From Chthonomonadaceae bacterium (GTDB lineage Bacteria; Armatimonadota; Chthonomonadetes; Chthonomonadales; Chthonomonadaceae), in contig DASRGZ010000173.1 in assembly GCA_035650735.1 (NCBI GenBank), forward strand, positions 54,615 to 74,614: a stretch of DNA of 20,000 nucleotides, written 5' to 3'. The notes beneath the pieces were generated by a model. That model was not told where the DNA came from, did not search any database, and saw only the letters and a list, made by a program, of their open reading frames with translations. Positions 3,310 through 20,000 of the stretch are shown here, piece by piece; the stretch's first letter is position 1, and every line of letters begins with the position of its first letter. Both the position numbers and the translations under genes were made by a program.

Positions 3310-4329
3310 TTACTGCCAGGGCTTGAGCAGGATTTTGGCGCAGTTGTGCGAGGCGGAAACCTCCATCGCCTGCTGGATCTCGCTCATGGGTATCTCGTGG
3401 CTAATCAGCTTGTCCAGCAGCGGCGATTTCTGAATGACCTGCATGATCTGCGGGAAGAGCGCCAGGTTGTAGTGCCAGGAGCCGATGAGCTTAAGCCCCT
3501 TGCGGATCATATCCGGGCTAATGCGCAGACGCAGCTCGTCGTCGTAGCACTCGCCGACAAAGGCCAGGCTACCCTTGCGTCGTAAAGCGTCAATGCAGAC
3601 TCGCTGCGCCTGGGGCACGCCGGAGCAGTCCAGCGCCTTATCTACTCCACGCCCCTGCGTCAGATCCCGGATCTGGCTCACCACGTTCTCGCTCTTCGGA
3701 TCGATCACGGCCTCTGCGCCAAGCTGTTTCGCGCGCTCCACGCGCCAGGGATGGCCCTCCACCACGATAGGCCGCGCGCCCCGGTAGACGGCGTTGACAA
3801 TCGCGCCCAGCCCGACCGGCCCGGCCCCCGTAATTAGCACCGTATCGAACGCATCCACACCCATCAGGTCAAACGCGCCAAACGACGGCCCCAGTGCGCA
3901 GCAGGCCAGCGAGGCGTGCTCGTAGGAGACGCCCTCCGGGATTTTGGGCAGCAGCCAGGAGGGCTTGAGGATATACTGGCCCATCGTGGCGCTACCCTCC
4001 AGCGAGCCGTGCAGCCGGGCGTAATCGGCGGCTTGCTCGCAATGGATATAGTCGCCGCCCACGCAGAGCGAGCACGTGCCGCATCCGGCCAGCGGCATGG
4101 CGACCACGCGATCCCCGACCTTGACGCGCCCCGGCTGGGCGACCGCGACCACTTCGCCCGCCGCCTCATGCCCCAGATGCTCGGCGCGATTTCCGGCCAG
4201 GAACGCTTTGTACTCCGTACACATGGGCGCGACATGCACCTTCACCAGAACCCAGTCCTCTTTCGGGCGCGGGTCCGGCACTTCCACGATCTCGGCCCGA
4301 CGTGGGCCGCTCACGACCACTTTTTGCAT
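3310..4329 (-). CDS. Zn-dependent medium-chain dehydrogenase (polyol/sugar dehydrogenase-like)
   Basis: Catalytic Cys (PMCTE), GHE, structural Zn cluster CGTCSLCVGGDYIHC, and GAGPVG Rossmann motif. Confidence 0.9.
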   Translation of the reverse strand: MQKVVVSGPRRAEIVEVPDPRPKEDWVLVKVHVAPMCTEYKAFLAGNRAEHLGHEAAGEVVAVAQPGRVKVGDRVVAMPLAGCGTCSLCVGGDYIHCEQAADYARLHGSLEGSATMGQYILKPSWLLPKIPEGVSYEHASLACCALGPSFGAFDLMGVDAFDTVLITGAGPVGLGAIVNAVYRGARPIVVEGHPWRVERAKQLGAEAVIDPKSENVVSQIRDLTQGRGVDKALDCSGVPQAQRVCIDALRRKGSLAFVGECYDDELRLRISPDMIRKGLKLIGSWHYNLALFPQIMQVIQKSPLLDKLISHEIPMSEIQQAMEVSASHNCAKILLKPWQ

Positions 4330-4340
4330 CTATCTCTCCC

Positions 4341-6362
4341 TTAAATTGGAATCACTTTGTAAGTCTGCACGCCGGTAAGGGTGCCGAAGAGCGCCCAGAG
4401 ACCGCCGGAGACGTAATCGCCCAGGATCAGGCCGATAAAGAACGGCAGCAACTGACGGTAGAGCTTCATCCCGCCATAGCGCAGAATCAATGCCTTGATC
4501 AGCCAGCCGACAAACGTCGCGCACCAGAGCCAGGGCATCGTAAACGTCCCGGCCAGCGCGTAGCCGACCGGGTGAAACGGCCACCAGAGAAAACGCGCCC
4601 GGCCCGCCATTAGCAGCCCCATGACCAGCATCCCGATGCCCATGCCTTGCAGGCGCAGCACATCAAACCGATTGGGCGTATCTATCCAGCCGGAGAGAAT
4701 GTTCCAGGGCGTGCGGCCCATCGAGGTGCGCCAGCTATCTACGTGCGCCGATCCCGCGCCGTAGCGGTAATAGCAGGCCAGGATGGCGGCCCAGGCAACC
4801 AGCGTGCCCAGGACGGTTGCCAGCAGGATCGCCCCAAAAACCTGCCGCTGCCGCATGCGCGCTTCGCCCGCGATCTTGAACGCCTCCAACTGGTAGGGCA
4901 TCAAGGTTGGGCGGTAATCCAGGTCCATCCACTGAAACTGGGTCAGCCCGACCAGGTTCTGCATCCCGTAGACCTGCGGGTTGGCGGCGGAGGTAAGCAT
5001 CTGATGCGGGGTCATGTCCGGCCCAAACGCCCAGGGCAGGCCCGCCTCCGCCCGCAGGCGCGTGTAGGTAACCACCACCAGCAGATAGAGCAGGAAGAAG
5101 AGCGCCGCCAGCCAGGCCGACATGCCAAGCGCCACCGCAAACGCCGTCATCCCCACAAAGCCGAGTACCGTGCCCGCCAGCGCCCAGCGATAGGGAAGCG
5201 GCTCCTTGCTGTCGTCCCCGGCGGCCCCGTCCGACCGGAAGGCCGTGCGGAATACCTCCCGCAGATAGCCGCGCATGTTCCACAGCGAGAACAGCGCCAG
5301 CCCGATAAACGCGCCAAACGCCTGCTCCCCGATATAAGGAATGCGCGCCAGGGCCGGGCGCGCCCCCGGATCGCGAAAGCCCAGCGCCGTCGTGATCACG
5401 TCCTCCGCCTTGCGCACAAAAAAGAAGAACCAGCAGGAGAAGGAGACATCCGTGGGCAGGAAGTAGACTACGCCGATAACTACCGGGTAGAACGACATCT
5501 CCAGCGTGCCAACGGCGTTCCAGGGCGAGGTGGTGAAGAGGGACGTCAGGCTCAGGCGCGGATCGCTAGGCTTGAGGGGCACGAAGGGAATGGATGGATA
5601 GAGATAGGCGATGCCGGCGAGGTTCTCCAGCGCAAAGGCGGCCAGAAACCCGGCCCACAGGAACTTATTGGCAAACAGGGCGCGATTGCCGCCGTCGCGG
5701 GTCATCTCCAGCGGCAGCAGGACGATGGGGAAAGTCAGCCGCTCCTGCTCGACCCAGCGCCGCCGCAGGATCGCGCTCAGGCAGAGTGTCGTAAAGAGCA
5801 TGACCACGATAAAGGCCGACCAGGCCAGGATCGGGCCGAGCCAGGCGGAAACGTGCGCCCACGTAAAGAACGAGGACTGGCCGTGATAGAACCCGCGCAG
5901 CGCGTCCGGGCGGGGAAACGCCCAGGCGCGCAGGTACGGGTGAAACTTCTCCGCCCACTGGTTTTCGGGCGTCGCCTCGTGCAGACCGCTCGCCTGCATC
6001 ATAATGAGAAACTGCATCATGCCGACGCTGCTGATGCTGATGGATACCGTCTGCAAGATATAGATGAAGAGCAGCTCCGCCTGCGTCAGCGCCAGGCGCG
6101 GCAGCCATCGTTTCAGGGCAGCGTTGACGGCCAGCAGCACCAGCAGCGCGAAGGTCACTCCGACGCCAAGCGCCGTGACGGCCAGTTCGGTGGACTGGGC
6201 CACGATGTCGCTGTAGACGTTCCAGAAGCAGAGCGCCGGAATGAGTAGCGTGCCGATGAGAAGCGCACGCGGAGTGATGCCGTAGGCGCTCAGGCGGCGT
6301 GCCCGGACGCCGCCCTGCGGCTGCGATGGCGTTTGTCGTTGGGACGGCGCGGGTCGCATCAT
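4341..6362 (-). CDS. Polytopic membrane protein, DUF6785/DUF6784-like (putative transporter)
   Basis: Many hydrophobic helices; motifs RRRWVEQERLTFPI, RLRAEAG, WWPFHPVGY, LILRYGG and PFFIGLILGD. Start moved to ATG 6362/6359 to avoid overlap with the upstream gene. Family name from recall. Confidence 0.75.
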   Translation of the reverse strand: MMRPAPSQRQTPSQPQGGVRARRLSAYGITPRALLIGTLLIPALCFWNVYSDIVAQSTELAVTALGVGVTFALLVLLAVNAALKRWLPRLALTQAELLFIYILQTVSISISSVGMMQFLIMMQASGLHEATPENQWAEKFHPYLRAWAFPRPDALRGFYHGQSSFFTWAHVSAWLGPILAWSAFIVVMLFTTLCLSAILRRRWVEQERLTFPIVLLPLEMTRDGGNRALFANKFLWAGFLAAFALENLAGIAYLYPSIPFVPLKPSDPRLSLTSLFTTSPWNAVGTLEMSFYPVVIGVVYFLPTDVSFSCWFFFFVRKAEDVITTALGFRDPGARPALARIPYIGEQAFGAFIGLALFSLWNMRGYLREVFRTAFRSDGAAGDDSKEPLPYRWALAGTVLGFVGMTAFAVALGMSAWLAALFFLLYLLVVVTYTRLRAEAGLPWAFGPDMTPHQMLTSAANPQVYGMQNLVGLTQFQWMDLDYRPTLMPYQLEAFKIAGEARMRQRQVFGAILLATVLGTLVAWAAILACYYRYGAGSAHVDSWRTSMGRTPWNILSGWIDTPNRFDVLRLQGMGIGMLVMGLLMAGRARFLWWPFHPVGYALAGTFTMPWLWCATFVGWLIKALILRYGGMKLYRQLLPFFIGLILGDYVSGGLWALFGTLTGVQTYKVIPI

Positions 6363-6370
6363 CGCCCGGC

Positions 6371-7423
6371 TCAATCGGCGATGGGGGCCGGGTTGTGCTC
6401 CCAATCGAGAATGACGCCCAGGTAACTCTCCTTCTCGTGCAGTAGTCCCTGGTAAGCGTTATTCAGCTCGGCGGGCGGCAGGACATGGGAGATGAGCGGC
6501 GTCACCTGGAGGCTGCCGTCGCCGATCATGCGCAGGATCAGCTCGGCGTTGGCCTCGGTGGTTACGCCCGGGCTCTGGCGCTTCAGCAGCGGGATCGTCC
6601 ACTCCAGCGCACCGATGATCTCGACGCCGTGGAAGTGCGCCCGCTTGAGCGCAACGGTGACGTCGCCCTGATAGGGCGCGCGCGGCGTGCCGAGCATGAT
6701 GACCTGCCCATTGTTGGCTACGTGGTGTACCGCCTGCTCGACGATGCGCGAGTCGCCGACGGCGTCCACGACGATAGGCGGGTTAACGCCGCCGTTCAGG
6801 GCGTTCACTCGCGCCCAGAGCTCGTCTTCCGAAAGCTCGGACGGATCGAGGGTCGCGTAGAAGCCGACTCTCTCGGCCAGGGCCCGCCGCTTGGCCGCGA
6901 GGTCTATGCCGATGACGCGCTGCCCATCCCGCTGGAAGAACTGCCCGGCCAGGTTCCCGACCAGCCCCAGGCCGATCATGACGACCGTATCGCCCAGCGC
7001 GGCCCGCGCCCGGCGAATGCCGGTGATCGCTACGCCCGCCATGCGCGCCATGACCGCCGTCGTCGAGTCCAATCCCTCCGGCACGGGCACGCAGAGCCGC
7101 TTGGCCGTGTCCTCCAGCGCATAGGAAGCGTGGTTGTAGATGCCGTAGACCCGCTGCCCCGGCGCGATGCCCTGCACGTCCGGTCCGATCGCCTGCACGC
7201 GCCCGATGCCGCCGTAGCCGGGCCGCCAGGGATAGGCGCACCATCGGCCCGGCACGCGCGTATCCGGGTCCAGGCCGGTGTAGTTGGCCAACTCTGTGCC
7301 GGCGCTGACGATGGTGCGCTCTATCTTCACCAGCACCTGCGTTCCCTGCGGCTCGTCCGGCAGGTCAAACTCCTCAAACCGCACCGTCTGTTCGGCAACG
7401 ATGCTCGCGCGAACGGCTTTCAT
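6371..7423 (-). CDS. Medium-chain dehydrogenase lacking canonical Zn ligands (BchC-like MDR subgroup)
   Basis: VSAGTE and PGYGGIGRV replace the Cys and GHE motifs; GLGLVG Rossmann motif. AGGAG RBS before ATG 7423 (MKAVRAS). Confidence 0.85.
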   Translation of the reverse strand: MKAVRASIVAEQTVRFEEFDLPDEPQGTQVLVKIERTIVSAGTELANYTGLDPDTRVPGRWCAYPWRPGYGGIGRVQAIGPDVQGIAPGQRVYGIYNHASYALEDTAKRLCVPVPEGLDSTTAVMARMAGVAITGIRRARAALGDTVVMIGLGLVGNLAGQFFQRDGQRVIGIDLAAKRRALAERVGFYATLDPSELSEDELWARVNALNGGVNPPIVVDAVGDSRIVEQAVHHVANNGQVIMLGTPRAPYQGDVTVALKRAHFHGVEIIGALEWTIPLLKRQSPGVTTEANAELILRMIGDGSLQVTPLISHVLPPAELNNAYQGLLHEKESYLGVILDWEHNPAPIAD

Positions 7424-7454
7424 GCTTCTTTCTCCTATGTAAGGGGTTCCATTG

Positions 7455-8756
7455 TTATGGGGAGAGGCTAGCGGTAAGGGCGTTAGCCTCGTCTTGGCGT
7501 CCGGCGTCGTGGAGCGCCTGCGCCAACTGGCGGCGTGCCTGCTGATCATCAGGCTGCATCTCCAGGATACGCTTGTACTCCACGATAGCCCGCTTCAGGC
7601 TGCCCACCCGATAGTATTCGCGGGCCAGAGCCCGGTGAGCGTTTATGTCGTTGGGCTTGAGGGTCACCCCCAGGGTCAGACGCGCCAGGGTATCGCTGAG
7701 CGTATGGTCTTGTTTGTGCTGCTTGAGAAGCTCCGCTCCCTTTTGCGTCTCTCCCTTTTGAATGTAAAGCTGTCCCAGGTGCAAAAGCACTTGCTCCGTA
7801 TGGCTATCGGCGGCGCGCACCTGCTCCAGGTCGCGCAGGGCGGCGTCGGTCTGGCCGAGCATCTTCTCGGCGACGCCCCGGATATAGAGGGCGCGTATAT
7901 TTCCGGGATGCAGCTGAAGCGCCTGGTTGGCAGCGTCAATTGCGGCGGGCGCGTTGCGCATCTGGATATAGATCTGCGCGCGCTCCAGCAGCAGCAGGCC
8001 CTTATCCGGCAGAATTTTGAGCGCCTCGTCTATGGTTTTGAGCGCATCGGGGTAGCGCTGGGCGTGCCGATAAACTTCGATCAGGGGGCCGATGCTGGAG
8101 GCGTCCTGAGGATCGAGCCGCCGCGCGGTCAGCAGTTCCCGCTCCGAAGCTCGAAAGTCGTTATTCTGGAAGTAGACCATGCCGAGCGTCACGTGCAGGC
8201 GCGGATCGTTGGGCAATTGCTTCAGGGCGCGGATGAGCAGTTGTTCCGCCTCGCGATTCCAGCCGAAAGCGATATATTTATAAGCCAGCAAGGAGAGCGC
8301 CTGGCCGTTATTAGGGTCAAGCTCCAGCGCGCGGCGGAACTCCTCCGCCGCCAGGTCGGGTAATCCGCTTACGTCGTAGATCTGGCCCAGGGCGACGTGC
8401 GGCTCGGCGCTTTGCGGGTTGAGCTGCGCGGCGATACGCGCCTCCTGCGCGGCCTGCGGGTACTTGAGCGCCCGGCCCAGCACAGCGGCCAGCGCCAGAT
8501 GCGCCTGGAAATTCTGCGGATCGGCGGCGACGCGCTTGCGGGCCGCCGCTTCCTCGGCTTTTTGCCGCTCCAGCGCGCGGAGGGCCTGGGCCTTTTGGGC
8601 GGTATCCTGCTCAATCCGGGCGGTTTCGCGGCTTAAGCGGGCGCGCAGCGGCCAGGTAGCCAGCCAGGCGACCGCCAGGATACCCAGGACGATCAGCAGA
8701 ATGCGGTCACGCCTGGAAAGACGGCCTGCGGTGGGTGAGAGCGAGAACGGCTTCAA
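7455..8756 (-). CDS. Membrane-anchored tetratricopeptide repeat (TPR) protein
   Basis: N-terminal TM (ILLIVLGILAVAWLATW), coiled segment, and multiple TPRs (e.g. AEPHVALGQIY...AAEEFRRALELDPNN). TTG start abuts the upstream stop. Confidence 0.85.
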   Translation of the reverse strand: MKPFSLSPTAGRLSRRDRILLIVLGILAVAWLATWPLRARLSRETARIEQDTAQKAQALRALERQKAEEAAARKRVAADPQNFQAHLALAAVLGRALKYPQAAQEARIAAQLNPQSAEPHVALGQIYDVSGLPDLAAEEFRRALELDPNNGQALSLLAYKYIAFGWNREAEQLLIRALKQLPNDPRLHVTLGMVYFQNNDFRASERELLTARRLDPQDASSIGPLIEVYRHAQRYPDALKTIDEALKILPDKGLLLLERAQIYIQMRNAPAAIDAANQALQLHPGNIRALYIRGVAEKMLGQTDAALRDLEQVRAADSHTEQVLLHLGQLYIQKGETQKGAELLKQHKQDHTLSDTLARLTLGVTLKPNDINAHRALAREYYRVGSLKRAIVEYKRILEMQPDDQQARRQLAQALHDAGRQDEANALTASLSP

Positions 8757-8757
8757 T

Positions 8758-10188
8758 TCAGGGACTTGCTTCCTTACTCAGAGCGCGGGCTGAGAGCGCT
8801 GCGCTCGTTTGCGCGACGGCTTGCGCTTCGCTCTGTCTGCCCATAGATTTCAAGGCCGAAACCAGCAAGCGGCGCGCCTGGCCATCGGTTGGGCGCAGCT
8901 GGAGCGTGCGGCGCAGCTCCACGACTGCCTGCGGGGCGCGGTCCGATTTCAAGTACCAGAGGGCGACGCTGCGATGGGCGCTTGCATCGTTGGGATGGGC
9001 GCTTACGGCGGCGCGCGCCTCGGCAAAATGGCGGGCATTAGCTTCCGCCGTCGTATAGAGCGAGATCAGGCGCTCGCCTTCGGCGCGTCTGGCCGGCTCT
9101 GACGCGCGCCGATAGATCCGACCCAATTGGAGTGCGACGGATTCAAACTGGATATCCTGGCGCGCGGCAAGCGCATAGTGACTTTCCGCTTCCGCCATCT
9201 TGCCCTGTAGCTCCAGCGCCCGACCCAGCCAGTAGTGGGCTTCCAGGTCGTCGGGACTCTGGCGCAGGGCCATGCGCGCCATCTGCTCCGCCTCCGCATA
9301 GCGCAGGGGCTTCCAGCTCGGCTCCAGCAGCAGGTGAGCCAGGCGCGTATAATCACGCGCCTGGACGGAGGGATCCGCGGAGAGCCTTATCGCGCGGCGC
9401 AGAAGCTCCTCGGCAGCGGGATAGCGTCCCTGCAAACGGTCTGCCTCCGCCAGGATGACCAGCAGCGCGGTGTTCTGCGGCCAGCGGCGCAGTCCCTCCT
9501 GTGCCGTCTGCTCCATGGCCGGATACTGATGCCGCAGATAGGCCAGCGTCGCCTGTCCGATCAGAACGCGCGGCTCCTCCGGCGCGGCGCGCGCCGCCTG
9601 ATCGAGCGCCTGCCGAGCGTCCTCAAGCCAGCCCAGATCCAGGTAGATGTCTCCCAGCCGGAGCGCTGTCTCCGCATCTCCGGGAGCGAGGCGCCGCAGC
9701 GTCTCCAGCGTCTCTAGCTCACGGTCGAGATAATTCGCCTTCCGGTAGAGAGCCGCCAGAGCACGGTAGGCCTCCACACTCTTTGGATCTAACCGAATGG
9801 CAGCGCGCAGTTCCTGGGCCGCTTCCGGCGCTTTCCCGCTCCGCGCGTAGAGGGAGGCCAGACTGATCCGGGCCGAGACGTCCCGTCTATTTTGGCGCAG
9901 GCGCTGCTCGGCAACAGCGACCTCAGCCGTTGTGGGCGGCGGCAGATCCGGAGGTGACTGTTGTCCAGGCGCAGCAGCGTGCTGGCTGGATAGGGCGGAA
10001 CTGGTTAAGAGCGGTTTGACTCCTGAAGAAGGCGGGGAATGCTGTACGCAGGAAAAGGCCAGGCCTGGCAGCAGCGTCAGCAGGCAAGCAGCCCATCGTG
10101 CGCCGGAGTTTAGGTTCGACGCTCGTAAACGACGCCTGATATTCACCATGTTTATAGGCTGAGTCAGCCGATTATGACCTATGCCCAT
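8758..10188 (-). CDS. TPR protein with signal peptide/possible lipobox and Pro-rich linker
   Basis: WAACLLTLLPGLAFSC, a PPDLPPP linker, then many TPRs (AAQELRAAIRLDPKSVEAYRALA, AHYWLGRALELQG). Start uncertain (10188 or 10149). Confidence 0.85.
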   Translation of the reverse strand: MGIGHNRLTQPINMVNIRRRLRASNLNSGARWAACLLTLLPGLAFSCVQHSPPSSGVKPLLTSSALSSQHAAAPGQQSPPDLPPPTTAEVAVAEQRLRQNRRDVSARISLASLYARSGKAPEAAQELRAAIRLDPKSVEAYRALAALYRKANYLDRELETLETLRRLAPGDAETALRLGDIYLDLGWLEDARQALDQAARAAPEEPRVLIGQATLAYLRHQYPAMEQTAQEGLRRWPQNTALLVILAEADRLQGRYPAAEELLRRAIRLSADPSVQARDYTRLAHLLLEPSWKPLRYAEAEQMARMALRQSPDDLEAHYWLGRALELQGKMAEAESHYALAARQDIQFESVALQLGRIYRRASEPARRAEGERLISLYTTAEANARHFAEARAAVSAHPNDASAHRSVALWYLKSDRAPQAVVELRRTLQLRPTDGQARRLLVSALKSMGRQSEAQAVAQTSAALSARALSKEASP

Positions 10189-10243: not shown

Positions 10244-10483
10244 TCACCTGCCGGAGGGAGCGGGAGTAGCTGCGGCGCTGCCCGCGTTCCCCTGTCCGGA
10301 TGGATGCGCGCTCTGGTATCGCTGCTGCATCATCTGCTGCATACCTTTTTCCATCCTCGCTTTGCTTTCCTGGGGCGTCAGCTTTGTCTCATGGAAGTAG
10401 GTCATATAGAGTCCTCCCACGATGGCCAGGGCAGCGACAACGATAACGACAACGGCGACGGGTCCGCTAATCTTTTGCTTCAT
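10244..10483 (-). CDS. Small single-TM protein (MKQKIS type), paralog of 17902-18129
   Basis: Basic N-terminus, ~20-aa hydrophobic helix, low-complexity tail; AAGGAAG RBS; paralog in the same context. Confidence 0.85.
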   Translation of the reverse strand: MKQKISGPVAVVVIVVAALAIVGGLYMTYFHETKLTPQESKARMEKGMQQMMQQRYQSAHPSGQGNAGSAAATPAPSGR

Positions 10484-10528
10484 CACAACTTCCTTAGAGT
10501 TTAGAGTACAGTTTCGAAAGCGGAGCGG

Positions 10529-11775: not shown

Positions 11776-12831
11776 TCAGACAGCCAGATTGCTACCAAAC
11801 GAAACGGGTGGCGCGGTAGATTGCCGGATAATAAGCTCGACCGGGCAGATAACCCCGGAAGGCATTTTGGCATCCGGCACGGCGCAGAGAGTCTCCAGCG
11901 CGAACTCCACGGCGGCTTTGCCCAGGCAATCCGGGTCTTGCCGCACGGTCGTCAGGGACGGCAGCATGGTGCGCGCGGAAGGCGCATCGTCGAACCCGAC
12001 AACGGAGAGGTCTTCCGGAATGCGCAAACCCCGCTCCCGTGCGGCCTGATAGACGTCCTCCGCCGCAAAATCGTACCAGGTCAGCAGGGCCGTCGGCGGC
12101 GTGTCGGCGGCCAGCCATTGGTCTAGCTGCGCAGCCGTGGCGTCGGCGTTCCAGGTATAGGGCTGTATCCAGTCCTCGCGCACCGGCAGGCCGTGCGCCT
12201 GGAGCGCTTTGCGGAACGCGGCCACGCGCGCAAGAACAATTGGCTCGTCGCTGCGCCCGGTCAGGTAGGCGATATGGCGGTGTCCCAGCCCTGCCAGATG
12301 GGCGATAGCCGCATAGATGCCGCCCTCGTTATCGCTATCCACCCAGCGCGCGTGGGGACCGGAGTCGCGGCTCAGCACGGTGATGGCCGGGATGCCGACG
12401 CTCTGTAGATACTCCACCAGCGCGCTCCGGTTGGGCGGGTTGATGAGCAGAAACGCATCGCTGCGCCCATCGCTATAGCGCAGGAATTCTTCGATCCCGG
12501 CGTCCTGATCCGGAAAGCCGTAGATCTGGGGGTTATAGCCGCGCTCCAGGGCATGATAGAAGATCGCCGAGAGCAGGGCATGCTCGAAAGCATGAGGCGC
12601 CATCTTCGCAAACGGCTGCACCGCGCAGACGATCCCAAGTACCTCCGCTCGCCGCCGCACCAACGCCCGCGCTACGGCATGAGGACGGAACTGTAGCGTC
12701 TCCGCTGCCGCCAGCACCCGCTCGCGCGTAGCAGGCGGAATTCGGTTGTTGCCGTTGAGCGCCAGGGAGGCGGTCGTCTTGGAGACGCCTGCGGCCAGCG
12801 CTACATCTGCCAGGGTGGGTCGCTTTCTCAT
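11776..12831 (-). CDS. LacI/GalR-family transcriptional regulator
   Basis: HTH PTLADVALAAGVSKTTASLALN, hinge FRPHAVARAL, and C-terminal IPEDLSVVGFDD...PSLTTVRQ...LIIRQST. Start at ATG 12831 after GAAGGGGG. Confidence 0.95.
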   Translation of the reverse strand: MRKRPTLADVALAAGVSKTTASLALNGNNRIPPATRERVLAAAETLQFRPHAVARALVRRRAEVLGIVCAVQPFAKMAPHAFEHALLSAIFYHALERGYNPQIYGFPDQDAGIEEFLRYSDGRSDAFLLINPPNRSALVEYLQSVGIPAITVLSRDSGPHARWVDSDNEGGIYAAIAHLAGLGHRHIAYLTGRSDEPIVLARVAAFRKALQAHGLPVREDWIQPYTWNADATAAQLDQWLAADTPPTALLTWYDFAAEDVYQAARERGLRIPEDLSVVGFDDAPSARTMLPSLTTVRQDPDCLGKAAVEFALETLCAVPDAKMPSGVICPVELIIRQSTAPPVSFGSNLAV

Positions 12832-12973: not shown

Positions 12974-12987
12974 GTAAATCGGTTCAC
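12974..12987. promoter_or_regulatory. LacI-type operator GTAAATCGGTTCAC
   Basis: Pseudo-palindrome GTRAAYCGRTTYAC with a central CG; exact reverse complement at 15067-15080; 8 bp downstream of a -10 box. Confidence 0.8.
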
Positions 12988-13062: not shown

Positions 13063-13139
13063 GCGGGCGCGGTTCGGAGGCGCGCTCGGCCAGCGTTCGA
13101 GGCCACCTGGAGGACCCAACCTCCGCAAACGCGGCCCGC
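13063..13139 (-). terminator. Long GC-rich hairpin after the 2-hydroxyacid dehydrogenase gene
   Basis: gcgggcgcggttcggagg (13063-13080) pairs imperfectly with cctccgcaaacgcggcccgc (13120-13139); tail only weakly U-rich. Confidence 0.4.
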
Positions 13140-13156
13140 CTGCGGCGTCCGGGAGT

Positions 13157-14161
13157 TCAGCCGCGATTGCGAATGTACTCCGGCTGGGCGACCTGCATCT
13201 CCTGGGGAGGCAGGCCCGCCAGGATCGCCTCCAGGTCGTTGATGACCATGCGCCCGATCATGCGGTAGGTCTCCGGGCCGCCGCCCGCCCGGTGCGCCGA
13301 CAGGATCGCGCCCGGCGCCAGCCGGATCGGATGGTCTGGCGGCAGCGGCTCGGTTGGGAAGACGTCAATGGCTGCTTTGAGCCGCCCGGCCAGCACCATC
13401 TCGGTCAGCGCGTCGAAGTCCACCAGATGCGCCCGGCTGATCAGCACCAGCACGGCGCCCGGCTGCATCGACTCCAGCCGCTCGCGGCTGAGGAGGGCGC
13501 GGTTGGCTTTGCTGGGAACGGCCAGCACAAAAACAACGCGCGACGTGCGCAGCAGCGTCTCCAGGCTGACGGGCGTGACGCCCTGCGTGCGCAGATAGGC
13601 GTCGGTCAGCCAGGGGTCGTAGACCTGAATCTGACAGCGGAAGGGGGCCAGCAGCGACTTGAGCGCGCGTGCCAGCCCGCCGAACCCGATAAAACCGACG
13701 GGCTTATCAAAGAGCAGGAAGTCATGCACATTGCCCGCGTAGCCCCAGACCTCTCGCCCGGCGCGAAACGCGGCGTCGCTGGCCACGATGTCCCGGGCGG
13801 CGGCGATGGCCATGCCCAGCGCCATCTCCGCCACTGCCGGCGCAAAGCCCGGCGCGCAGCTTAAGACACGGATGCCGCGCGCAAAGCAGGTCGGATAATC
13901 CAGGATTTCCGGGCTGGGGAAGCTGCCGCCGACCTCCAGGATGGCGCGCAGCTTCGGAAACGCCGCTACGGAGCCGTAGCGCCAGCCGCCCGTGATGATG
14001 GCGACGATCTCCTCCCGCACGACCTCCACGGCTTCTGGGGGCATCGGCTCGTCCCGCGCCCAGACGATTTCGGCCAACGTGCGCAGGCGCTCCATCTCCT
14101 CCGCCCCGAACAGAGACGCCATCTTGCGAAAATGGGGATCGAGAATGACCTTCTCGGTCAT
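13157..14161 (-). CDS. D-isomer-specific 2-hydroxyacid dehydrogenase
   Basis: AVAEMALG, GFIGFGGLAR, YDPW, LISRAHLVD, DVFPTEP and SAHRAG. GAGGAG RBS before ATG 14161 (MTEKVIL). Confidence 0.9.
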   Translation of the reverse strand: MTEKVILDPHFRKMASLFGAEEMERLRTLAEIVWARDEPMPPEAVEVVREEIVAIITGGWRYGSVAAFPKLRAILEVGGSFPSPEILDYPTCFARGIRVLSCAPGFAPAVAEMALGMAIAAARDIVASDAAFRAGREVWGYAGNVHDFLLFDKPVGFIGFGGLARALKSLLAPFRCQIQVYDPWLTDAYLRTQGVTPVSLETLLRTSRVVFVLAVPSKANRALLSRERLESMQPGAVLVLISRAHLVDFDALTEMVLAGRLKAAIDVFPTEPLPPDHPIRLAPGAILSAHRAGGGPETYRMIGRMVINDLEAILAGLPPQEMQVAQPEYIRNRG

Positions 14162-14175
14162 GGAGTGGCGCTCCT

Positions 14176-14979
14176 CTAGAAGTTGGGGATAGGCGAGTAG
14201 TCGTTCTTGCCGCCGGTGCGGTCTTTGCCGCGTACCAGATAGATTCTGTGCTCCCTGTTCCAGCCTTCTCGGTGGAGCTTGACATGGGCCGGCATGTAGC
14301 GCATGGTATAGCCGCAGCGGCGCTTGGTGGAGGTGTTCGGGTTCGAGCCGTGAACCGTCCAGGCGTCGTGGAAGTGGCATTCGCCGACCGCCAGTTCGAG
14401 GTCTACGACTTTGTTCTCGTCAATCAGTTCGGGCGGGATGCGCGCATGGAAGACGTTGGTGCTTTTATCCACCGGCTCGTAAGCCTCAATGGCCGTCTTC
14501 ATCGCCCGGTGTGAGCCGGGAAGGACGCGCATACAGCCGTTCTCTACGGTGGACTCATCCACGGCCAGCCAGAGCGTGATGACCTCCATGGGATCGAGGC
14601 GTCGGTTCCAGTACGCGCCGTCGGTGTGCCAGGGAACGGCCTTGCCGTCGCCCTTGGGCTTGGCGATGAAGTGGCTGGACCAGAGAACAATGTCCGGCCC
14701 GATAAAATCTTCGATCACGTCCAGGACGCGCGGATCGGTCAGGTAGCGGAACAGCCACGGGTCGGTAAAGTGGGGGACGTCCATCTCTTCGGGGCGCTTG
14801 CCTTCCGGGAGGGCCGCGATCATCTCATCCACATGCTGGCGGAGGGCCTCGATTTCGGCCTGCGTGAAAATACGTCCAAACTTTAAGTAACCGTTCTCAC
14901 GGTAAAGGGCGACCTGTTCCGGCGTGGCGTGCCGCACCGTTTCGCTGTCTTTCCAGGTCGGCGGCGTTGCGATGGTCAT
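14176..14979 (-). CDS. Phytanoyl-CoA dioxygenase (PhyH)-family Fe(II)/2-oxoglutarate dioxygenase
   Basis: YRENGYL, WHTDG (HxD), WLAVDESTVENGCMRVLPGSH and VHGSNPN...RR. AAAGGAG RBS. Confidence 0.92.
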   Translation of the reverse strand: MTIATPPTWKDSETVRHATPEQVALYRENGYLKFGRIFTQAEIEALRQHVDEMIAALPEGKRPEEMDVPHFTDPWLFRYLTDPRVLDVIEDFIGPDIVLWSSHFIAKPKGDGKAVPWHTDGAYWNRRLDPMEVITLWLAVDESTVENGCMRVLPGSHRAMKTAIEAYEPVDKSTNVFHARIPPELIDENKVVDLELAVGECHFHDAWTVHGSNPNTSTKRRCGYTMRYMPAHVKLHREGWNREHRIYLVRGKDRTGGKNDYSPIPNF

Positions 14980-15066
14980 GGGGGTCTTCTCCTTTGAGTT
15001 CCCTGGAGGTAAGCCAGAAGCCGTTCGAGTAAGGGCAGCTTCCTGGCGGGAATACTATTCGCGTTG

Positions 15067-15080
15067 GTGAACCGATTTAC
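15067..15080. promoter_or_regulatory. LacI-type operator GTGAACCGATTTAC
   Basis: Identical to the reverse complement of 12974-12987; 8 bp downstream of a -10 box. Confidence 0.8.
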
Positions 15081-15088
15081 CTGCACAG

Positions 15089-15118
15089 AGCATACCAAAA
15101 CAAATGGAGGGTTGTCAA
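15089..15118 (-). promoter_or_regulatory. Sigma70-like promoter for the PhyH / 2-hydroxyacid dehydrogenase operon
   Basis: Minus strand TTGACA (15118-15113), 18-bp spacer ending in TGn, TATGCT (15094-15089). Confidence 0.8.
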
Positions 15119-15248
15119 GGCTCTTTTATGCGTTTGCGAGAATGCAGGGAGAAGGAACAGGCTGGCGTTGGGGTGAATAGGCTCATGAAAAAGGACAGCC
15201 CCTCCGTAGACGTTTGGGCTGCCTTATCCTGCATGGGAGCCTTTGCCG

Positions 15249-17402
15249 ATGTGTCGGTTCTCTCTCTTTTTGCGCGCGCTGCTGACGGCAGCCGCCCTGG
15301 GGGTTGTTATGCCGCTTGCACAAGCCGCTACGCTCTATGTCGCGCCCGACGGCAACGATGCCTGGTCCGGGAGGCGATCACGCCCCAACGCCGCGCATAG
15401 TGACGGCCCGCTGGCCTCCCTGGCGGGCGCGCGGGACGCCATCCGCCGGCTCAAGGCGGGCGGGCCGCTGACCGAAGCCGTGCGCGTTGTCATTGCGGGG
15501 GGCCGCTACACGCTGACCGAGCCGATCGTCTTCGGCCCGCAGGATAGCGGCACGGAGCGCTTTCGCATCGTCTACGAGGCGGCGCGTGGGGCCAGGCCGA
15601 TCTTCAGCGGCGGGCGCGTTCTGGGCGGCTTTCAGCCCGGAGCGGACGGCCTCTGGAGGACGGTCGTGCCGGAGGTTAAGGCCGGGAAATGGACCTTCGA
15701 GCAGCTCTTCGTCAATGGCAGGCGGGCGACGCGGGCGCGCACGCCCAACAAGTTCTATTTTTATATGCAGGGCAAGGTCGGTGAGGGCACCGACCCGCTG
15801 ACCGGCAAGCAGACCAATCTCGCCAACCGGGCCTTTATCGCCCGCCCCGAAGACATCCAGCCGCTGCTCGGCCTCTCGCCGGAACAGCTCCGCGACGTGA
15901 CGCTGGTGGCCTATCATTCCTGGGAGGTCTCGCGCCTGCGAATCGCCGCCATTGACCCGAGGACCAACATGGTAATCACGACCGGGCCGGCGGCGTGGCC
16001 GTTTCTGGAGTGGGGGCCGAGCCAGCGCTACCATCTGGAGAATTTCAAAGCGGCGCTGGATGCTCCCGGCGAGTGGTTCCTGGATCGCGACGGCACGCTG
16101 ACCTATAAGCCGCTGCCCGGTGAGGAGTGGACAAAGGCGGAGGTCGTCGCGCCGGTGGTGGAGCAGTTCGTGCGCTTTGAGGGCGAGCCGGGACGGAAGG
16201 TGGCACATATCACGCTCAAAGGGCTTTCCTTCCAGCACGGGCAGCGCCTTCTGGAGCCGGAGGGCCACAGCGACTCACAGGCCGCCTATAGCGTTCCCGC
16301 CGTCCTCATGGCCGATGACGCGCAGGACATCGCCATACAGAACTGCGAGATCGCCCACATCGGCGACTACGGCATCTGGTTTCGGCGCGGCTGCTCCAAT
16401 TGCCGGGTCGAGCATACCTACATTCATGATCTAGGCGCGGGCGGCGTGCGCATCGGCGAGGGCGAGATACGCCCGGAGGAGGCGGAGCGCACCGGCCATA
16501 TCACCGTGGACAACAACATCATCCAATCCGGCGGGCATCTCTTTATGGGCGCGGTGGGAGTCTGGATCGGCCAGAGCGGCGATAACCGCGTCACGCATAA
16601 CGACATTGGCGACTTCCGCTACACGGGCGTCTCGGTCGGCTGGCGCTGGGGTTACGACGAGAGCCTGGCGAAGCGCAACGTCATCAACTTCAACCACATC
16701 CACCATCTCGGCTGGGGCATCCTGAGCGACATGGGCGGCGTCTACACGCTCGGCCCCTCCGAGGGCACGACCGTCAACAACAACTGCATCCACGACGTCT
16801 ACTCGTATGACCGCTACGGGCGCGGCGGCTGGGGCCTCTATAACGACGAAGGCTCCACGCATATCCTCCTGGAGAACAACCTGGTCTACAATACCAAGAC
16901 CGGCGGCTACCACCAGCACTACGGCAAGGAGAACCGCGTCCGCAACAACATCTTCGCCTTCAGCATGGACGGGCAGTTGCAGCGCTCGCGCGTGGAAGAG
17001 CATATCTCCTTCTTCTTCGAGCGCAACATCGTCTACTGGAAGGGCGGCAGGCTCTTCACCGGCTCGTGGAAGGATGCCAACGTCGTACTCGATCACAACC
17101 TCTACTGGGACGCCTCCGGAGCGCCGATCTCTTTTGAGGGCCTGAGTTTTGAGCAGTGGCAGCGGCTCGGCAAGGATGCCGGCTCGCTGGTGGCCGATCC
17201 GAAGTTTGTCGCGCCCGACCGCTACGATTTCCGCCTGCGTCCCGACTCGCCCGCCTTTTCTATTGGCTTTCAGCCGTTCGACTACCGCCAAGCGGGTGTC
17301 TACGGCGATCCGGCCTGGGTGCGGCTGGCAAAGCGCGCAGCCTATCCGCCCGTGGAGTTTGCGCCGGAGCCGCCGCCATCCACTGCAACGACCTCCCGCT
17401 AG
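15249..17402 (+). CDS. Secreted right-handed parallel beta-helix protein, GH141-like glycoside hydrolase
   Basis: Signal peptide ending [17 protein letters not shown]...[17 protein letters not shown]; beta-helix repeats; [11 protein letters not shown] and GLYNDEGS motifs. GGGAG before ATG 15249. Confidence 0.8.
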
Positions 17403-17431
17403 TCCACCACGCAAACAGGGGTCCTCTCACA

Positions 17432-17898
17432 TTGAGCCGGGTACGTTCTATGCCCGGCTCAAGCTCTTTGTGACCGGGCATTGAAAATACCCGTCTGTAG
17501 GGCGGCTACGCCGCCAACCGTCCTTCGGACGGAACACCTGGCTTTACTGTGCGTCCGCCAGGGCGCTTGGCCGTTAGGCCCTAGAGCCGGGGGTTGAAAA
17601 CCCCGGACCTAGCCGGGCATGGAAAATACCCGTCTGTAGGGCGGCTACGCCGCCAACCGTCCTTCGGACGGAACAACCGGCATGGCGGCAGGTGGTTGCC
17701 TTAGTAAAGCGGGAAGAACCTGCCGCAGCGAGGCGTCCGCTAGTCGCAAGGCAGAGGCGCGAGTGTCGCCAGGCGGAGATCGCCAGGCAGAGCCGCGAGC
17801 CGTTGAGCGGCGTCCCTGGCAGTCGAGCGTGCGTAGTTCCGACCCTAGCAGTCGCTTGGCGGCGTAGCCGCCCTAGAGACGGGTACTTTCAGTACCCG
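17432..17898. repeat. Cluster of REP-like three-hairpin units in alternating orientation
   Basis: Unit of ~63 bp ccgggcat(t/g)gaaaatacccgtctgtagggcggctacgccgccaaccgtccttcggacggaaca at 17474-17536 and 17613-17675 (1 mismatch); inverted variants at 17551-17606 and 17836-17898; related hairpin at 17432-17462. Confidence 0.85.
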
Positions 17899-17901
17899 AA
17901 A

Positions 17902-18129
17902 CTATGGGGTAGAAGAGGGAGCGTTGCCGGGCTGGTTGCCGAAGGGTGGTCCACCTCGCTGCACTCCTGGCGGTGGTCCCGTCGGCGGACCCGGTCGTTT
18001 AAAGACGGTCGTGCTATCCACAACGCGGTTGGAGGGGGTCATAAAGTGCCGGTAGGCCAGTACGATGATAACCACCGCCACGACGACGATGATGGCAATG
18101 GCCGCTGCTGGGCTAATCTTTTGCTGCAT
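17902..18129 (-). CDS. Small single-TM protein (MQQKIS type), paralog of 10244-10483
   Basis: MQQKISPAAAIAIIVVVAVVIIVLAYRHF plus a Pro/Gly tail; GGAAAGG RBS before ATG 18129. Confidence 0.85.
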   Translation of the reverse strand: MQQKISPAAAIAIIVVVAVVIIVLAYRHFMTPSNRVVDSTTVFKRPGPPTGPPPGVQRGGPPFGNQPGNAPSSTP

Positions 18130-18240
18130 CCTACAACTACCTTTCCGTATAAAATGGCATTCTCTATCAGAGCGCAAGCGTTCCTCTCTGCCTGCGGCCC
18201 TTTTCAGGGCGCGCGGACGGGAACGGATCGCCCGGCCCTG

Positions 18241-19797
18241 TTACTTTTTCGTCCCCGTGGTAAAGGTCTCGATCTTCTGGGCGCGGATGGCAGGATCATC
18301 CTGATGCTGCGCCGCGAACTGCCGTAGGCGGGTGATCAGCACCGGAGAGCGCTGCGGCTCCAGGCGGATCGCCTGGTTGTACTCGTCCGCCGCCTCTTTG
18401 AGCCGACGCATCTGCAGCAGGGCGTTGCCCAACTCCTCGTGAGCATCCGGGCTGCGGCGGGCCAGCTCGACTGCGCGCAGCGCCAGCGGCAGCGCCAGGT
18501 ACGCATGGCCGCCCTGCGTCAGGTCGCGCGAGGCGGCGATCAGCACGGGCGGCGCGTCCAGCGCCTTGTGCATGGCCATCGAGTAGTTATGCACGCAGCC
18601 GTCGGCGTCGCCGTGCCGGCCTAGCCAGCGCGCCAGCCGCATCTTGCGGGCCGGGTCGTTGGGATCTACCGTCACATCCTGGAGCAGCTTGCTGCGTTCG
18701 GAGGTCAGGTTCTGCCGCAGGAGATATTCTCGTTCCCAGGTCTTGAACTCGTCCGTATGGCCCAGGGCGCGGTGGATCTGCATCAGCGTCAGCGCCGGCG
18801 CCGGGTCGTCCGGGGCCAGTTGGGCGGCGCGGGTGAGCGGTTCGATGGCCCCGACGCGGTCGCCGTTATAGTTGCGCGCGCGCCCCAGAATCAGGTAAGA
18901 GGCCGAATCACCGATGCCGAGCGCAATGGCCTGCTGCGCCTGCTGCGCCGCCAGGCTCCGGTCGGCGGGCGTTTTGGCGGTATCCAGCAGCCAGCGGGCG
19001 TACTCCTGGTGCGCCACGGCATGGCGCGGGGCCAGGGCCAGCGTCTTCTCAAACTCGGCGCGGGTCAGCGCGGGCGGTTGATTGGTGCGGGCGCACAGGG
19101 AAGCAAAAGCCAGGTGCGCCTCCGCGCTCTGTGGGTTGAGCGCTACGGCATGGGAAGCCGCCTGCCAGGCTTTTGCCAGGTCGCGCAGGCTATCCTCCGC
19201 CCCGGCCAGATAGAGATACGCCGCGGCGTAGTCGGGTTTGAGGGCGACGGCACGGGTAAACTCTTCGCTGGCCCGCTCCATCGAGCGCTGCGTATAGTAG
19301 AACTTGCCCAGGATGTAATGGGCCTCGGCTAGATCCGGGTGCCGTCCGGCGAACTCGCGCAGCTCGCCGAAGGCCGCCGTCGTGTTGCCGCTGCCGAGTA
19401 AGGCGCGCGCCCACTCGTCCCGCAGGCGCGGCGTGTCCGGGTCCAGCCCGACGGCTTGCCGCAGATACCCGTCCGCCTCCGCAAAGCGCTTCTGCTGATT
19501 GAGGCGCAGGCCGATATAGTAGAGCAGTCGGGAGCTTTCCCCACGATCCTGGAGCTCCTGCTTCAATTCAGACAAGGACATCCGGGAAAGCCGCCAGTCC
19601 TGGTAAGTCCCGCTTTGGAGCGTCAGGGAAGCGCCGACAGCGAGCACCGCCGCCAGGCAGATCAGCGCGGCAAAGCGCGGGGAGATCCGGCGGCGCGGCG
19701 CGGGGGCACTGGCGCTTTGGGTAGGAGCAGAGGCAGCGGACGCTGCCTCTCGCGTGTGGAACATCATAGGGTTACGTGCTTTTGGGCCTCTCTCCAC
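18241..19797 (-). CDS. Membrane-anchored TPR protein
   Basis: TM FAALICLAAVLAVGASL followed by many TPRs (AEAHYILGKFYY...FTRAVALKPDYAAAYLYLA). Start is 19797 (GTG) or 19767 (ATG). Confidence 0.85.
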   Translation of the reverse strand: MERGPKARNPMMFHTREAASAASAPTQSASAPAPRRRISPRFAALICLAAVLAVGASLTLQSGTYQDWRLSRMSLSELKQELQDRGESSRLLYYIGLRLNQQKRFAEADGYLRQAVGLDPDTPRLRDEWARALLGSGNTTAAFGELREFAGRHPDLAEAHYILGKFYYTQRSMERASEEFTRAVALKPDYAAAYLYLAGAEDSLRDLAKAWQAASHAVALNPQSAEAHLAFASLCARTNQPPALTRAEFEKTLALAPRHAVAHQEYARWLLDTAKTPADRSLAAQQAQQAIALGIGDSASYLILGRARNYNGDRVGAIEPLTRAAQLAPDDPAPALTLMQIHRALGHTDEFKTWEREYLLRQNLTSERSKLLQDVTVDPNDPARKMRLARWLGRHGDADGCVHNYSMAMHKALDAPPVLIAASRDLTQGGHAYLALPLALRAVELARRSPDAHEELGNALLQMRRLKEAADEYNQAIRLEPQRSPVLITRLRQFAAQHQDDPAIRAQKIETFTTGTKK

Positions 19798-19841
19798 AAG
19801 CGTTCTGCCAGGGTAGGCATATCTGCCTGTGGGGAGAGGCC
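19785..19841 (-). other. Intergenic stem-loop after the second H-X9-DG gene
   Basis: ggcctctctccacaag (19785-19800) and cctgtggggagaggcc (19826-19841): 14/16 complementary. Confidence 0.55.
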
Positions 19842-19866
19842 ATTAACTGCCGCGCAGACGCAGGCG

Positions 19867-20000
19867 TTACGGATGGTTGGACATCAGGTCTTCCGGGGAG
19901 CCCTGCTTGGCATTCATGAACGAAGGCGAGAGCGATTTGACATGCCCGTCAAAGAAGGCGGCGTTGAGGCGGCCGGAGTGGCGCGGGAAGGGACGCCGGG
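19867..20000 (-). CDS. C-terminus of a second H-X9-DG (DUF1559-type) protein, truncated by the window edge
   Basis: Manual translation from 19998: RRPFPRHSGRLNAAFFDGHVKSLSPSFMNAKQGSPEDLMSNHP*. Not in the ORF track. Confidence 0.88.
   Translation of the reverse strand, partial: RRPFPRHSGRLNAAFFDGHVKSLSPSFMNAKQGSPEDLMSNHP

Follow-up and report, generated by a model that had tools for sequence, protein, structure and literature searches.

A LacI-linked pilin-like gene and its small membrane partner in a Chthonomonadaceae bacterium: candidate components of a regulator-gated nutrient capture system

The final 20 kb of contig C173 of a soil bacterium of the Chthonomonadaceae (DASRGZ010000173.1, positions 54,615 to 74,614 of the forward strand), referred to here as the window, raises the question as to why a gene for a DUF1559/H-X9-DG protein, whose N-terminus resembles that of type IV pilins, should stand directly behind a gene for a LacI-family regulator and among genes of apparent sugar catabolism. 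The minus-strand genes are transcribed in the order PhyH, D-2-hydroxyacid dehydrogenase, LacI, pilin-like protein, small transmembrane (TM) protein, two tetratricopeptide repeat (TPR) proteins, medium-chain dehydrogenase/reductase (MDR), DUF6785+DUF6784 membrane protein, and a final MDR (Table 1). The parts of this cassette are of known kinds, namely a pseudopilin, a LacI repressor, TPR proteins, and a protein with a modelled OPT fold.

A preliminary description of this DNA had proposed that the cassette captures glycans by means of its pilin and is a functional analogue of a polysaccharide utilisation locus (PUL). The gene inventory and order on which that proposal was built are borne out by translations of the open reading frames (ORFs) and by Pfam scans. 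Indeed, genes of the pilin-like, small TM, and TPR types occur twice on the minus strand in different order, copy 1 lies directly behind LacI and runs into two MDR dehydrogenases and a polytopic membrane protein, and a secreted GH141-like gene is located between the two copies; SusC/D or ABC genes were found among none of the 16 window ORFs scanned with Pfam. The analysis below points to a core composed of the regulator, the pilin, and the small protein. Whether this core serves regulator-gated capture, with the cassette supplying the substrate-specific subunit of a shared pseudopilus/secretin machine, is in our opinion evenly balanced.

The pilin-like protein and its LacI regulator

The genome in question (G000) amounts to 6.52 Mb in 224 contigs. 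Genome-wide counts are based on crude codon-usage gene calls of our own making, which missed both small ORFs of the window and PhyH; pilin-like genes (n = 74) were defined by a G/A-FTLIE start, and neighbourhood counts were compared with those of random gene sets. Using the window LacI protein as the phmmer query, 16 LacI-family genes were retrieved, of which 13 have a pilin gene on the same strand downstream within three called genes and one more has a pilin gene in divergent orientation. The two LacI genes without a pilin are accompanied by TPR genes (C40) and by FG-GAP proteins and a DUF6785 gene (C79). Seen from the other side, LacI is the immediate neighbour of eight of the 74 pilin genes (0.38 expected). 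The same link was observed in four related genomes (G004, G012, and G017, among the matches listed, and two of the three listed for G019; 21 LacI genes, 20 loci), where 17 LacI genes are directly followed by a pilin gene that often overlaps or is separated by a few bases, one is divergent from a pilin gene, and three are without one.

The window LacI protein possesses both its helix-turn-helix and its Peripla_BP_3 domains, and reaches 147.6 bits with an NCBIfam subfamily model whose cut-off is 340. Its promoter is composed of TTGACA (13024-13019), a 17 nt spacer, and TAATCT (13001-12996), followed by the predicted operator GTGAACCGATTTAC, a 14 bp near-palindrome that is symmetric at 10 of its 14 positions and has CG at its centre. 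A second, identical 14-mer is found behind the minus-strand promoter facing PhyH (TTGACA, 18 nt, TATGCT; 15118-15089), 163 nt before the start of the GH141-like gene. The exact 14-mer has just these two copies in the 6.5-Mb genome, and a search permitting up to two mismatches returned 10 further genome sites, seven of them inside called ORFs and none adjoining a pilin gene. Because identical predicted operators are present at the LacI and PhyH promoters, the local regulon would comprise at least the PhyH-dehydrogenase pair and the run starting with LacI, while control of the GH141-like gene by LacI is possible. The earlier assignment of the pilin-like gene to a sugar-type regulon is thus upheld by its position behind LacI and by the exact predicted operator in the PhyH/GH141 intergenic region.

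The type IV prepilin-type N-terminus attributed to the DUF1559 proteins is seen in copy 1, which displays a class III signal (a short basic leader, Phe1, Glu5, and about 20 hydrophobic residues), and scores above the cut-offs of Pfam N_methyl (33.7 bits against 21.2) and TIGR02532 (27.4 bits against 16.3). The DUF1559 model (PF07596) is matched at 40.8 bits against a cut-off of 23.3, a match that covers profile positions 2-40 of 268 only. At the C-terminus, the H-X9-DG motif is present in copy 1 (H264-X9-D274-G275) and in copy 2 (HSGRLNAAFFDGH, within a translated C-terminus that includes HSGRLNAAFFDGHVKSL); 40 of the 74 pilin-like proteins of the genome carry it in their last 80 residues. In a 38-sequence alignment, D274 and H276 are invariant and H264 and G275 nearly so.

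The conservation of these proteins is markedly uneven. Over 703 pairs (38 proteins, five genomes), pairwise identity averages 82% in an N-terminal stretch of 54 residues and 14% elsewhere, and a common stem with private heads is what would be expected of subunits that join one fibre. The first ~22 mature residues are similar to those of short GspG-like pseudopilins encoded beside the GspE/secretin genes of the genome. Solved pilins were matched by a profile search of the PDB at their N-termini only, and the NCBIfam ComGC and ComGE models match the N-terminus below their cut-offs. As regards assembly genes, the genome yields one match to the prepilin peptidase family Peptidase_A24, 17 to T2SSE (at least seven near-full-length GspE/PilB-type ATPases, plus shorter PilT-sized ones), and six to secretins. 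A pilin-TPR-CRTAC1-TPR-TPR module (C100:10306-14042) is separated by 1.7 kb from the gene of a GspE-type ATPase (C100:12915-14042), and is the sole case of proximity between a cassette and an assembly gene that was seen.

The near-invariant assembly helix, the hypervariable head, the linkage to LacI, and the presence of assembly genes in the genome are among the reasons for which we propose capture by a common machine. In such a mechanism, a sugar-type effector would release LacI, whereupon the pilin-like, small, and TPR proteins would be made, and PhyH, the three dehydrogenases, and the OPT-fold carrier would be co-produced. The pilin-like protein would be cleaved by prepilin peptidase and inserted in the common fibre by way of its conserved helix, and its variable head would bind the nutrient, which would thereby be carried past the outer membrane. 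Import of the product across the inner membrane would then probably fall to the OPT-fold protein, and in that membrane the small protein would likely escort or dock its cognate pilin. The TPR proteins may act as optional periplasmic adaptors, their counterparts elsewhere in the genome being paired with CRTAC1-like β-propeller lipoproteins.

The small membrane protein and the TPR genes

On sequence grounds, the small protein appears to be real and, throughout the phylum, a partner dedicated to the pilin gene. When ORFs of 35-140 aa with an N-terminal TM segment and a start at most 300 nt downstream were counted, 24 of the 74 pilin genes were found to be followed by one, compared with 3.4 ± 1.6 (maximum 8) in 200 random sets. 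Alignment of 19 members from five genomes defines the family: the signature M-[KQR]-[QK]-x-[IV]-[SNP]-P leads into a TM segment, beyond which come an aromatic residue with Arg/Lys and a tail that is rich in Pro/Gly but not conserved. The two small proteins of the window have only the N-terminal six residues and the TM segment in common (BLASTP E 0.29); the first, which is preceded by a Shine-Dalgarno-like AAGGAAG, is a member of the alignment, while the second is matched by the family hidden Markov model (HMM) at E 5.6e-16 (G000:C173:72519-72743). Over the first 10 codons, small gene 1 and its ortholog in G001, a genome of the same genus, differ by four synonymous changes and one non-synonymous change. 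The "MxQKIS" motif of the preliminary description proved too narrow: a strict definition, M.QK[IVL][ST] plus a TM segment, occurs twice genome-wide, in the two window ORFs, and was dropped in favour of the broader alignment.

Searches with the family HMM, which is blind to neighbours, reveal the same association in other genomes. In G004, 15 of 16 hits are within ~350 bp of a pilin gene, on either side, and the remaining one lies within a pilin-TPR-small-CRTAC1 run. The four hits in G012 comprise one adjoining a pilin gene, one in a pilin-TPR-small arrangement (the order of copy 2), one after TPR-CRTAC1, and one that is false. A further 17 hits were returned for G017. In three distant genomes, a pilin gene stands beside the small-family hit in 16 of 17 loci; these 17 loci include LacI in seven cases and DUF6785 in four, and TPR or CRTAC1 genes in none. 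Of 121 genomes sampled across the phylum, the family was detected in 46, and its distribution is patchy, some families scoring 6/6, 4/4, 8/9, and 5/5 and others 0/10 and 0/6. The idea that the small ORFs are chance ORFs, raised by their weak bias in third-position GC content (GC3) and by their omission from the gene calls, was rejected because the hits of the neighbour-blind HMM adjoin pilin genes so consistently in G004 and in the distant genomes. Small-family genes are also found after TPR or CRTAC1 genes (L018, L074, and L075).

Complex prediction provides a further, weak indication of this partnership. The pilin and small protein together scored an ipSAE of 0.52 (0.50-0.57 between runs), compared with 0.00 for the best of three controls, with at least 87% of contacts in common between runs and a partner pLDDT of at least 72. 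The ipSAE mark employed is passed by 116 of 157 solved complexes and by two of 215 mismatched pairs, and the score falls in the weak-support band at or below 0.60, which holds only 18 of the 157 solved complexes and both of the passing mismatches. At a different locus (L016; C193:19000-26000), three tandem pilin genes are each followed by another kind of small protein, lipoprotein-like and bearing a PGYY(S/T)GPF(K/R) motif, and hence a second family of small partners may exist.

The preliminary description had placed the TPR proteins on an equal footing with the small protein as dedicated partners of the pilin, a view that does not hold. The same-genus locus in G001 consists of LacI, a pilin (290 aa), a small protein (MKQKISAP..., 66 aa), and immediately thereafter the start of a dehydrogenase, with no TPR gene; G001 is assembled in short contigs (L077, L079, and L083), the contiguous piece being LacI-pilin-small-dehydrogenase start only. 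Since this locus and the 17 distant loci are without TPR genes, the regulator, pilin, and small protein constitute the core, and the TPR genes are an optional addition in this bacterial order. The three TPR proteins of the window are 27-30% identical (TPR 2 and TPR 3 share 30% and 27%, respectively, with TPR 1). They reach 78.3, 47.8, and 77.5 bits with the PilW model TIGR02521 (cut-off 154) and 37.7-46 bits with the Tgl model (cut-off 225), and judging by these scores their resemblance to PilW/PilF/Tgl is generic TPR likeness only.

It may even be that the TPR genes are outside the pilin system altogether and form, with CRTAC1-like lipoproteins, a separate system that is often located beside pilin genes, a possibility that we consider somewhat unlikely. 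With an HMM built from the three window proteins, and generic in character, a TPR gene is found within four genes of 21 of the 74 pilin genes (random 4.65 ± 2.0, maximum 12 in 1000) and as the immediate neighbour of 13 (random 1.45, maximum 6), so enrichment near DUF1559 genes applies to the TPR genes as it does to the small ORFs. The usual order in the genome is pilin, (small), TPR, often followed by a CRTAC1-like lipoprotein of 570-740 aa (FG-GAP_3 plus UnbV_ASPIC). The coupling to the latter is equally frequent: within two genes, the 55 TPR-family genes have both a pilin and a CRTAC1-like neighbour in 10 cases, only a pilin in nine, only a CRTAC1-like gene in 10, and neither in 26. Furthermore, a TPR gene lies no more than two genes away from 18 of the 32 CRTAC1-like genes (random 1.1), and one TPR-CRTAC1 fusion of 1218 aa is encoded at C218:7604. 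Together with the loci that lack TPR genes, this even split favours a separate system. On the other hand, the same-strand order pilin-(small)-TPR, with short gaps, recurs in this genome and in G004 and G012 (L061, L072, and L075), and the small protein itself is encoded after TPR or CRTAC1 genes at the three loci named above. Of the 32 CRTAC1-like genes, 19 encode a lipobox; examples are L001:3977-5719, L002:8351-10576, and L004:4778-6478.

The putative carrier, uptake, and rival explanations

The DUF6785+DUF6784 protein was modelled with AlphaFold2 from a 20-sequence paralog alignment (pLDDT 89.2, pTM 0.90), and the model indicates an OPT/Yellow-Stripe transporter fold. The top Foldseek match is barley Yellow Stripe 1 (7wst_A; E 7.7e-10, probability 1.00, TM-scores 0.66/0.71), all other matches having TM-scores below 0.2. 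VIA-align, which is independent of Foldseek, aligns 559 of 600 residues with 7wsr_A (Z 25.1, rmsd 3.9), the next match reaching Z 5.5. This whole-chain match to HvYS1 is accompanied by 11-14% identity and by a setting of sugar catabolism rather than of peptide or metal-chelate uptake. Three DUF6785 paralogs do not match Pfam OPT (PF03169) at E up to 10, and the family would therefore constitute a remote branch of the OPT fold; an Atlas lead places PF03169 on 11% of one archaeal DUF6785 cluster. That the protein might be a GT-C-type pilin glycosyltransferase was considered and dropped, as its sole strong fold match is an OPT carrier.

The genome contains 23 DUF6785 matches, in settings that include a sugar-catabolic run with an FGGY kinase, PhyH, and UxuA-like and GH130-like proteins, the vicinity of a GH38 gene, and a run headed by LacI that also holds FG-GAP proteins. 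At L027, L032, and L088 the genes stand in the order LacI-pilin-small-DUF6785, and a DUF6785 gene lies within five genes of 10 of the 74 pilin genes (2.7 expected), a moderate enrichment. The DUF6785 ortholog of G001 is 72% identical to the window protein. PhyH and DUF6785 are also paired in L054 (C173:35000-50000), which is a run of sugar-catabolic genes on the same contig, 12 kb upstream, and in L080 of G001 (C298) PhyH is directly followed by a DUF6785 gene.

Evidence for uptake rather than export is provided by genes elsewhere in the genome. TPP and cobalamin riboswitches control genes for synthesis or uptake. The only TPP riboswitch match of the genome (C21:3469-3572) is just upstream of a DUF1559/H-X9-DG gene (region C21:3469-4527), and its only cobalamin riboswitch match (C106:31931-32073) is 168 nt upstream of another (region C106:30996-32073). 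Behind the cobalamin-linked gene come a Cys-rich ORF of 90 aa and a lipoprotein of 586 aa. TonB-dependent barrels are represented by one match in the genome and by 0-4 per genome in 20 relatives, and Plug by one match in the genome. Taken together, the vitamin riboswitches and the scarcity of TonB receptors favour acquisition over the export of enzymes. With TonB-dependent receptors nearly absent, a PUL-like role without SusC/D is conceivable.

A more far-reaching version of the capture proposal, which we regard as unlikely on balance, holds that DUF1559 proteins are exchangeable ligand-binding subunits on one retractile pseudopilus that would draw nutrients by way of a secretin into the periplasm, each subunit being switched on by its own sensor (LacI for sugars, TPP/B12 riboswitches for vitamins), loaded by a tiny cognate membrane protein, and served by DUF6785 in the final step of import. 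These would amount to a third general route across the outer membrane, one that might replace TonB-dependent/SusCD systems in Armatimonadota and, within the same unlikely scenario, probably also in Planctomycetota and allies.

Several points weigh against capture of either kind. Ligand binding, processing, polymerisation, and transport are all predicted functions of the cassette, and LacI is separated from the pilin gene by 293 nt that hold no copy of the operator, so that their co-transcription is an assumption. In the window pilin, the predicted cleavage site is preceded by Ala in place of Gly. The AlphaFold2 model of this protein has a pLDDT of 67 overall, with 100 residues below 50, a long N-terminal helix (16-66), and few C-terminal strands, and Foldseek against the PDB aligns the pilin helix only, at E 0.8 or worse; the head, modelled at low confidence, is without a fold match, and glycan binding by this protein, as first suggested, finds no support. 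No DUF6785 gene is the immediate neighbour of any of the 74 pilin genes in this genome. To our knowledge, the substrates of OPT proteins are peptides and metal chelates, not sugars. The codon bias of the small ORFs is weak, the GC3 bias of small gene 1 (0.68) being below that of neighbouring genes, and the crude caller favoured an ORF on the opposite strand over this gene. The controls of the complex prediction are probably soluble proteins, which leaves room for generic helix-helix packing, and the lack of TPR genes in the G001 locus may mean that they are irrelevant to the core function. Finally, both the gene calls and the HMMs of the families are of our own making, and the related genomes do not count as independent samples. 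Overall, the LacI regulon, the partnership of the small protein, and the transporter fold remain from the original interpretation, and obligatory TPR proteins, glycan binding, and the narrow motif do not.

Two other explanations seem to us improbable, and to the same degree. In the first, DUF1559 proteins would be cargo-specific pseudopilins that help a type II secretion system to export a co-regulated enzyme, here the GH141-like protein, without any capture. This protein is predicted to be secreted and GH141-like: phmmer relates it to BT_1002 (PDB 5mqp, E 6.5e-40) and to 9rx2 (E 7.6e-48), it reaches 28.6 bits with GH141_M (cut-off 27), and its N-terminus is signal-peptide-like. Its gene lies beside operator 2, GspG-like proteins and several GspE/secretin sets are encoded in the genome, and other LacI-pilin units have glycoside hydrolases nearby (GH78 in L058, a PF10091 protein in L059, and GH38 in L055). 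A planctomycete type II secretion system is, moreover, reported to be up-regulated on fucoidan (PMC11685898). However, vitamin-sensing switches upstream of DUF1559 genes would be unexpected for enzyme export, a secreted enzyme is lacking beside many LacI-pilin-small units, and operator 2 is placed just past the promoter that faces PhyH, with the GH141-like start 163 nt away.

In the second, unpolymerised DUF1559 proteins would be tethered binding proteins that, with the small TM protein, feed DUF6785, in the manner of DctP-DctQ-DctM in tripartite ATP-independent periplasmic (TRAP) transporters or TctC-TctB-TctA in tripartite tricarboxylate transporters (TTT). The carrier fold of DUF6785, the order pilin-small-DUF6785 at the three loci listed above, the genus-level order pilin-small-dehydrogenase-DUF6785, and the weak pilin-small complex score, which nevertheless exceeds that of the best control, are in keeping with such a transporter. 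Against it, pilin genes (74) far outnumber DUF6785 matches (23) and in this genome never stand immediately beside one, Foldseek against the PDB revealed no binding-protein fold for the pilin head, and the conserved pilin helix and prepilin cleavage motif are hard to explain without a common assembly machine. The window proteins contain no DctP/TctC or DctQM/TctBA Pfam family, and the likeness to TRAP/TTT systems is architectural only.

Least probable are adhesion pili, in which the variable pilin-like proteins would be attachment subunits, without a part in uptake, made when a particular plant or microbial polymer is sensed: adhesive pilins typically combine a conserved stem with variable heads, and the Fimbriimonas ginsengisoli genome paper, in its passage on 79 PulG-like genes, reads them as attachment pili (PMC4072686), but vitamin riboswitch control and the carrier and catabolic genes of the run point to acquisition, and attachment would leave the scarcity of TonB-dependent receptors unexplained.

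Known systems and features of the window

The capture proposal finds its closest structural relatives in GspG of type II secretion systems and in type IV pilins, with which the protein shares a basic leader, a G/A-FTLIE start with Glu5, a long hydrophobic helix, a variable globular part, and assembly genes in the same genome. It differs from them in a head of ~230 aa without a fold match, in the H-X9-DG motif, in its tiny membrane partner, and in the existence of 74 paralogs, each with its own regulator and dispersed at a distance from the assembly genes. Type IV pilins that carry an additional binding module, termed "modular", are reportedly known in Streptococcus sanguinis (PilB/PilC). ComGC-type competence pseudopili would be alike in working only, a retracting pilin-type fibre that binds an external polymer being the mechanism proposed here; the present system, by contrast, is known from sequence alone, its proposed cargo consists of sugars or vitamins and not DNA, and its subunits are many and exchangeable. 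The likeness to the SusC/SusD-based PUL of Bacteroidota is likewise one of working, in that one locus brings together a substrate-specific regulator with the genes for catabolism, for import, and for a secreted glycosidase, the difference being the absence of SusC-like TonB-dependent transporters and SusD from the scanned window ORFs and the single TonB-barrel match in the genome. As for the small protein, TfpX/TfpY/TfpZ of Pseudomonas aeruginosa are said to be pilin accessory genes downstream of pilA; they too would be small membrane proteins encoded beside a pilin allele and varying with it, whereas the proteins described here are shorter, with one TM segment and a fixed MKQxISP start.

In the planctomycetes, crateriform structures are described whose pili-like fibres bind gold-labelled dextran, according to the passages on these fibres in Boedeker et al. 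2017 (PMC5394234). This is an envelope fibre that binds a polysaccharide prior to uptake, in a phylum with large DUF1559 paralog groups; it belongs to another phylum, and the same passages name no subunit and describe no regulator or small partner. In Planctopirus limnophila, no paralog group is larger than DUF1559, whose 68 genes include two essential ones, as stated in the section on paralogs of PMC10632474, and the passages on the family there and in PMC4072686 assign it no function. In the papers that our literature searches returned, the cassette, its regulator logic, its tiny partner, and its link to an OPT-fold carrier are undescribed, and DUF1559 is not tied to regulators, small partners, or carriers.

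Should the capture proposal be true, it would explain how carbohydrate-scavenging diderms that are nearly without TonB-dependent receptors acquire nutrients of large size. Several families of unknown function would be given roles in one stroke, the very large DUF1559 family gaining a testable one. The locus is a defined test case, with one repressor and a 14-bp predicted operator, a pilin-like protein and its tiny partner, a secreted GH141-like protein, and an OPT-fold carrier.

Table 1. Features of the 20-kb window, with positions counted from its first nucleotide
Feature	Position	Strand	Evidence or remark
MDR zinc-type dehydrogenase, final gene of run	3310..4329	-	Pfam ADH_zinc_N 93.8 bits, ADH_N 53.8 bits
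DUF6785+DUF6784 polytopic membrane protein	4341..6290 (start uncertain, ORF to 6404)	-	Pfam DUF6785 531 bits, DUF6784 124 bits
Second MDR-type dehydrogenase, start at MKAVRAS	6371..7423	-	Pfam ADH_zinc_N 50.8 bits, ADH_N 24.8 bits
TPR protein 1, membrane-anchored, 433 aa	7455..8756	-	Many TPR Pfam families; N-terminal hydrophobic segment
TPR protein 2, 476 aa	8758..10188	-	TPR Pfam families; N-terminal hydrophobic segment or possible lipoprotein signal
Small bitopic membrane protein 1, 80 aa, MMKQKISGP + TM + variable tail	10244..10486	-	Translation, family alignment
DUF1559/H-X9-DG pseudopilin-like protein, copy 1, 296 aa	10592..11482	-	Pfam N_methyl 33.7 bits, DUF1559 40.8 bits
LacI-family regulator, start taken at ATG 12831	11776..12831	-	Pfam LacI HTH 53.1 bits, Peripla_BP_3 130.9 bits
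Predicted operator 1, GTGAACCGATTTAC	12974..12987	-	8 nt past -10 of LacI promoter
D-isomer 2-hydroxyacid dehydrogenase	13157..14161	-	Pfam 2-Hacid_dh_C 117.4 bits
PhyH-type Fe(II)/2-oxoglutarate dioxygenase, first gene behind operator 2	14176..14979	-	Pfam PhyH 120.3 bits
Predicted operator 2, identical 14-mer	15067..15080	.	8 nt past -10 of minus-strand promoter
Secreted GH141-like right-handed beta-helix protein	15243..17402	+	Pfam Beta_helix 57.5 bits, GH141_M 28.6 bits
Small bitopic membrane protein 2, 75 aa, MQQKISP + TM + P/G-rich tail	17902..18129	-	Translation; family HMM
TPR protein 3, membrane-anchored, start uncertain	18241..19797	-	TPR Pfam families
Second H-X9-DG pseudopilin-like gene, C-terminal 44 codons	19867..20000	-	Contains HSGRLNAAFFDGH; cut by contig end

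With regard to the features of Table 1, the start of the second MDR-type dehydrogenase agrees with an ortholog start visible in G001 (L079), and no model reached NCBIfam equivalog level for the final one. NCBIfam is without a model for DUF6785, for the GH141-like protein, and for the small proteins. On the plus strand at 517-3149, the window also encodes an APH-type kinase, an AAA_33 kinase-like protein, and a secreted protein with weak LptA/LptC-like matches, all apparently unrelated to the cassette. The intergenic region between the GH141-like gene and small protein 2 (17460-17900) is made of a dispersed repeat, for which blastn-short returned 426 hits on 106 contigs with a per-base coverage of about 50-100, and whose unit of ~53 nt is present twice in the window.

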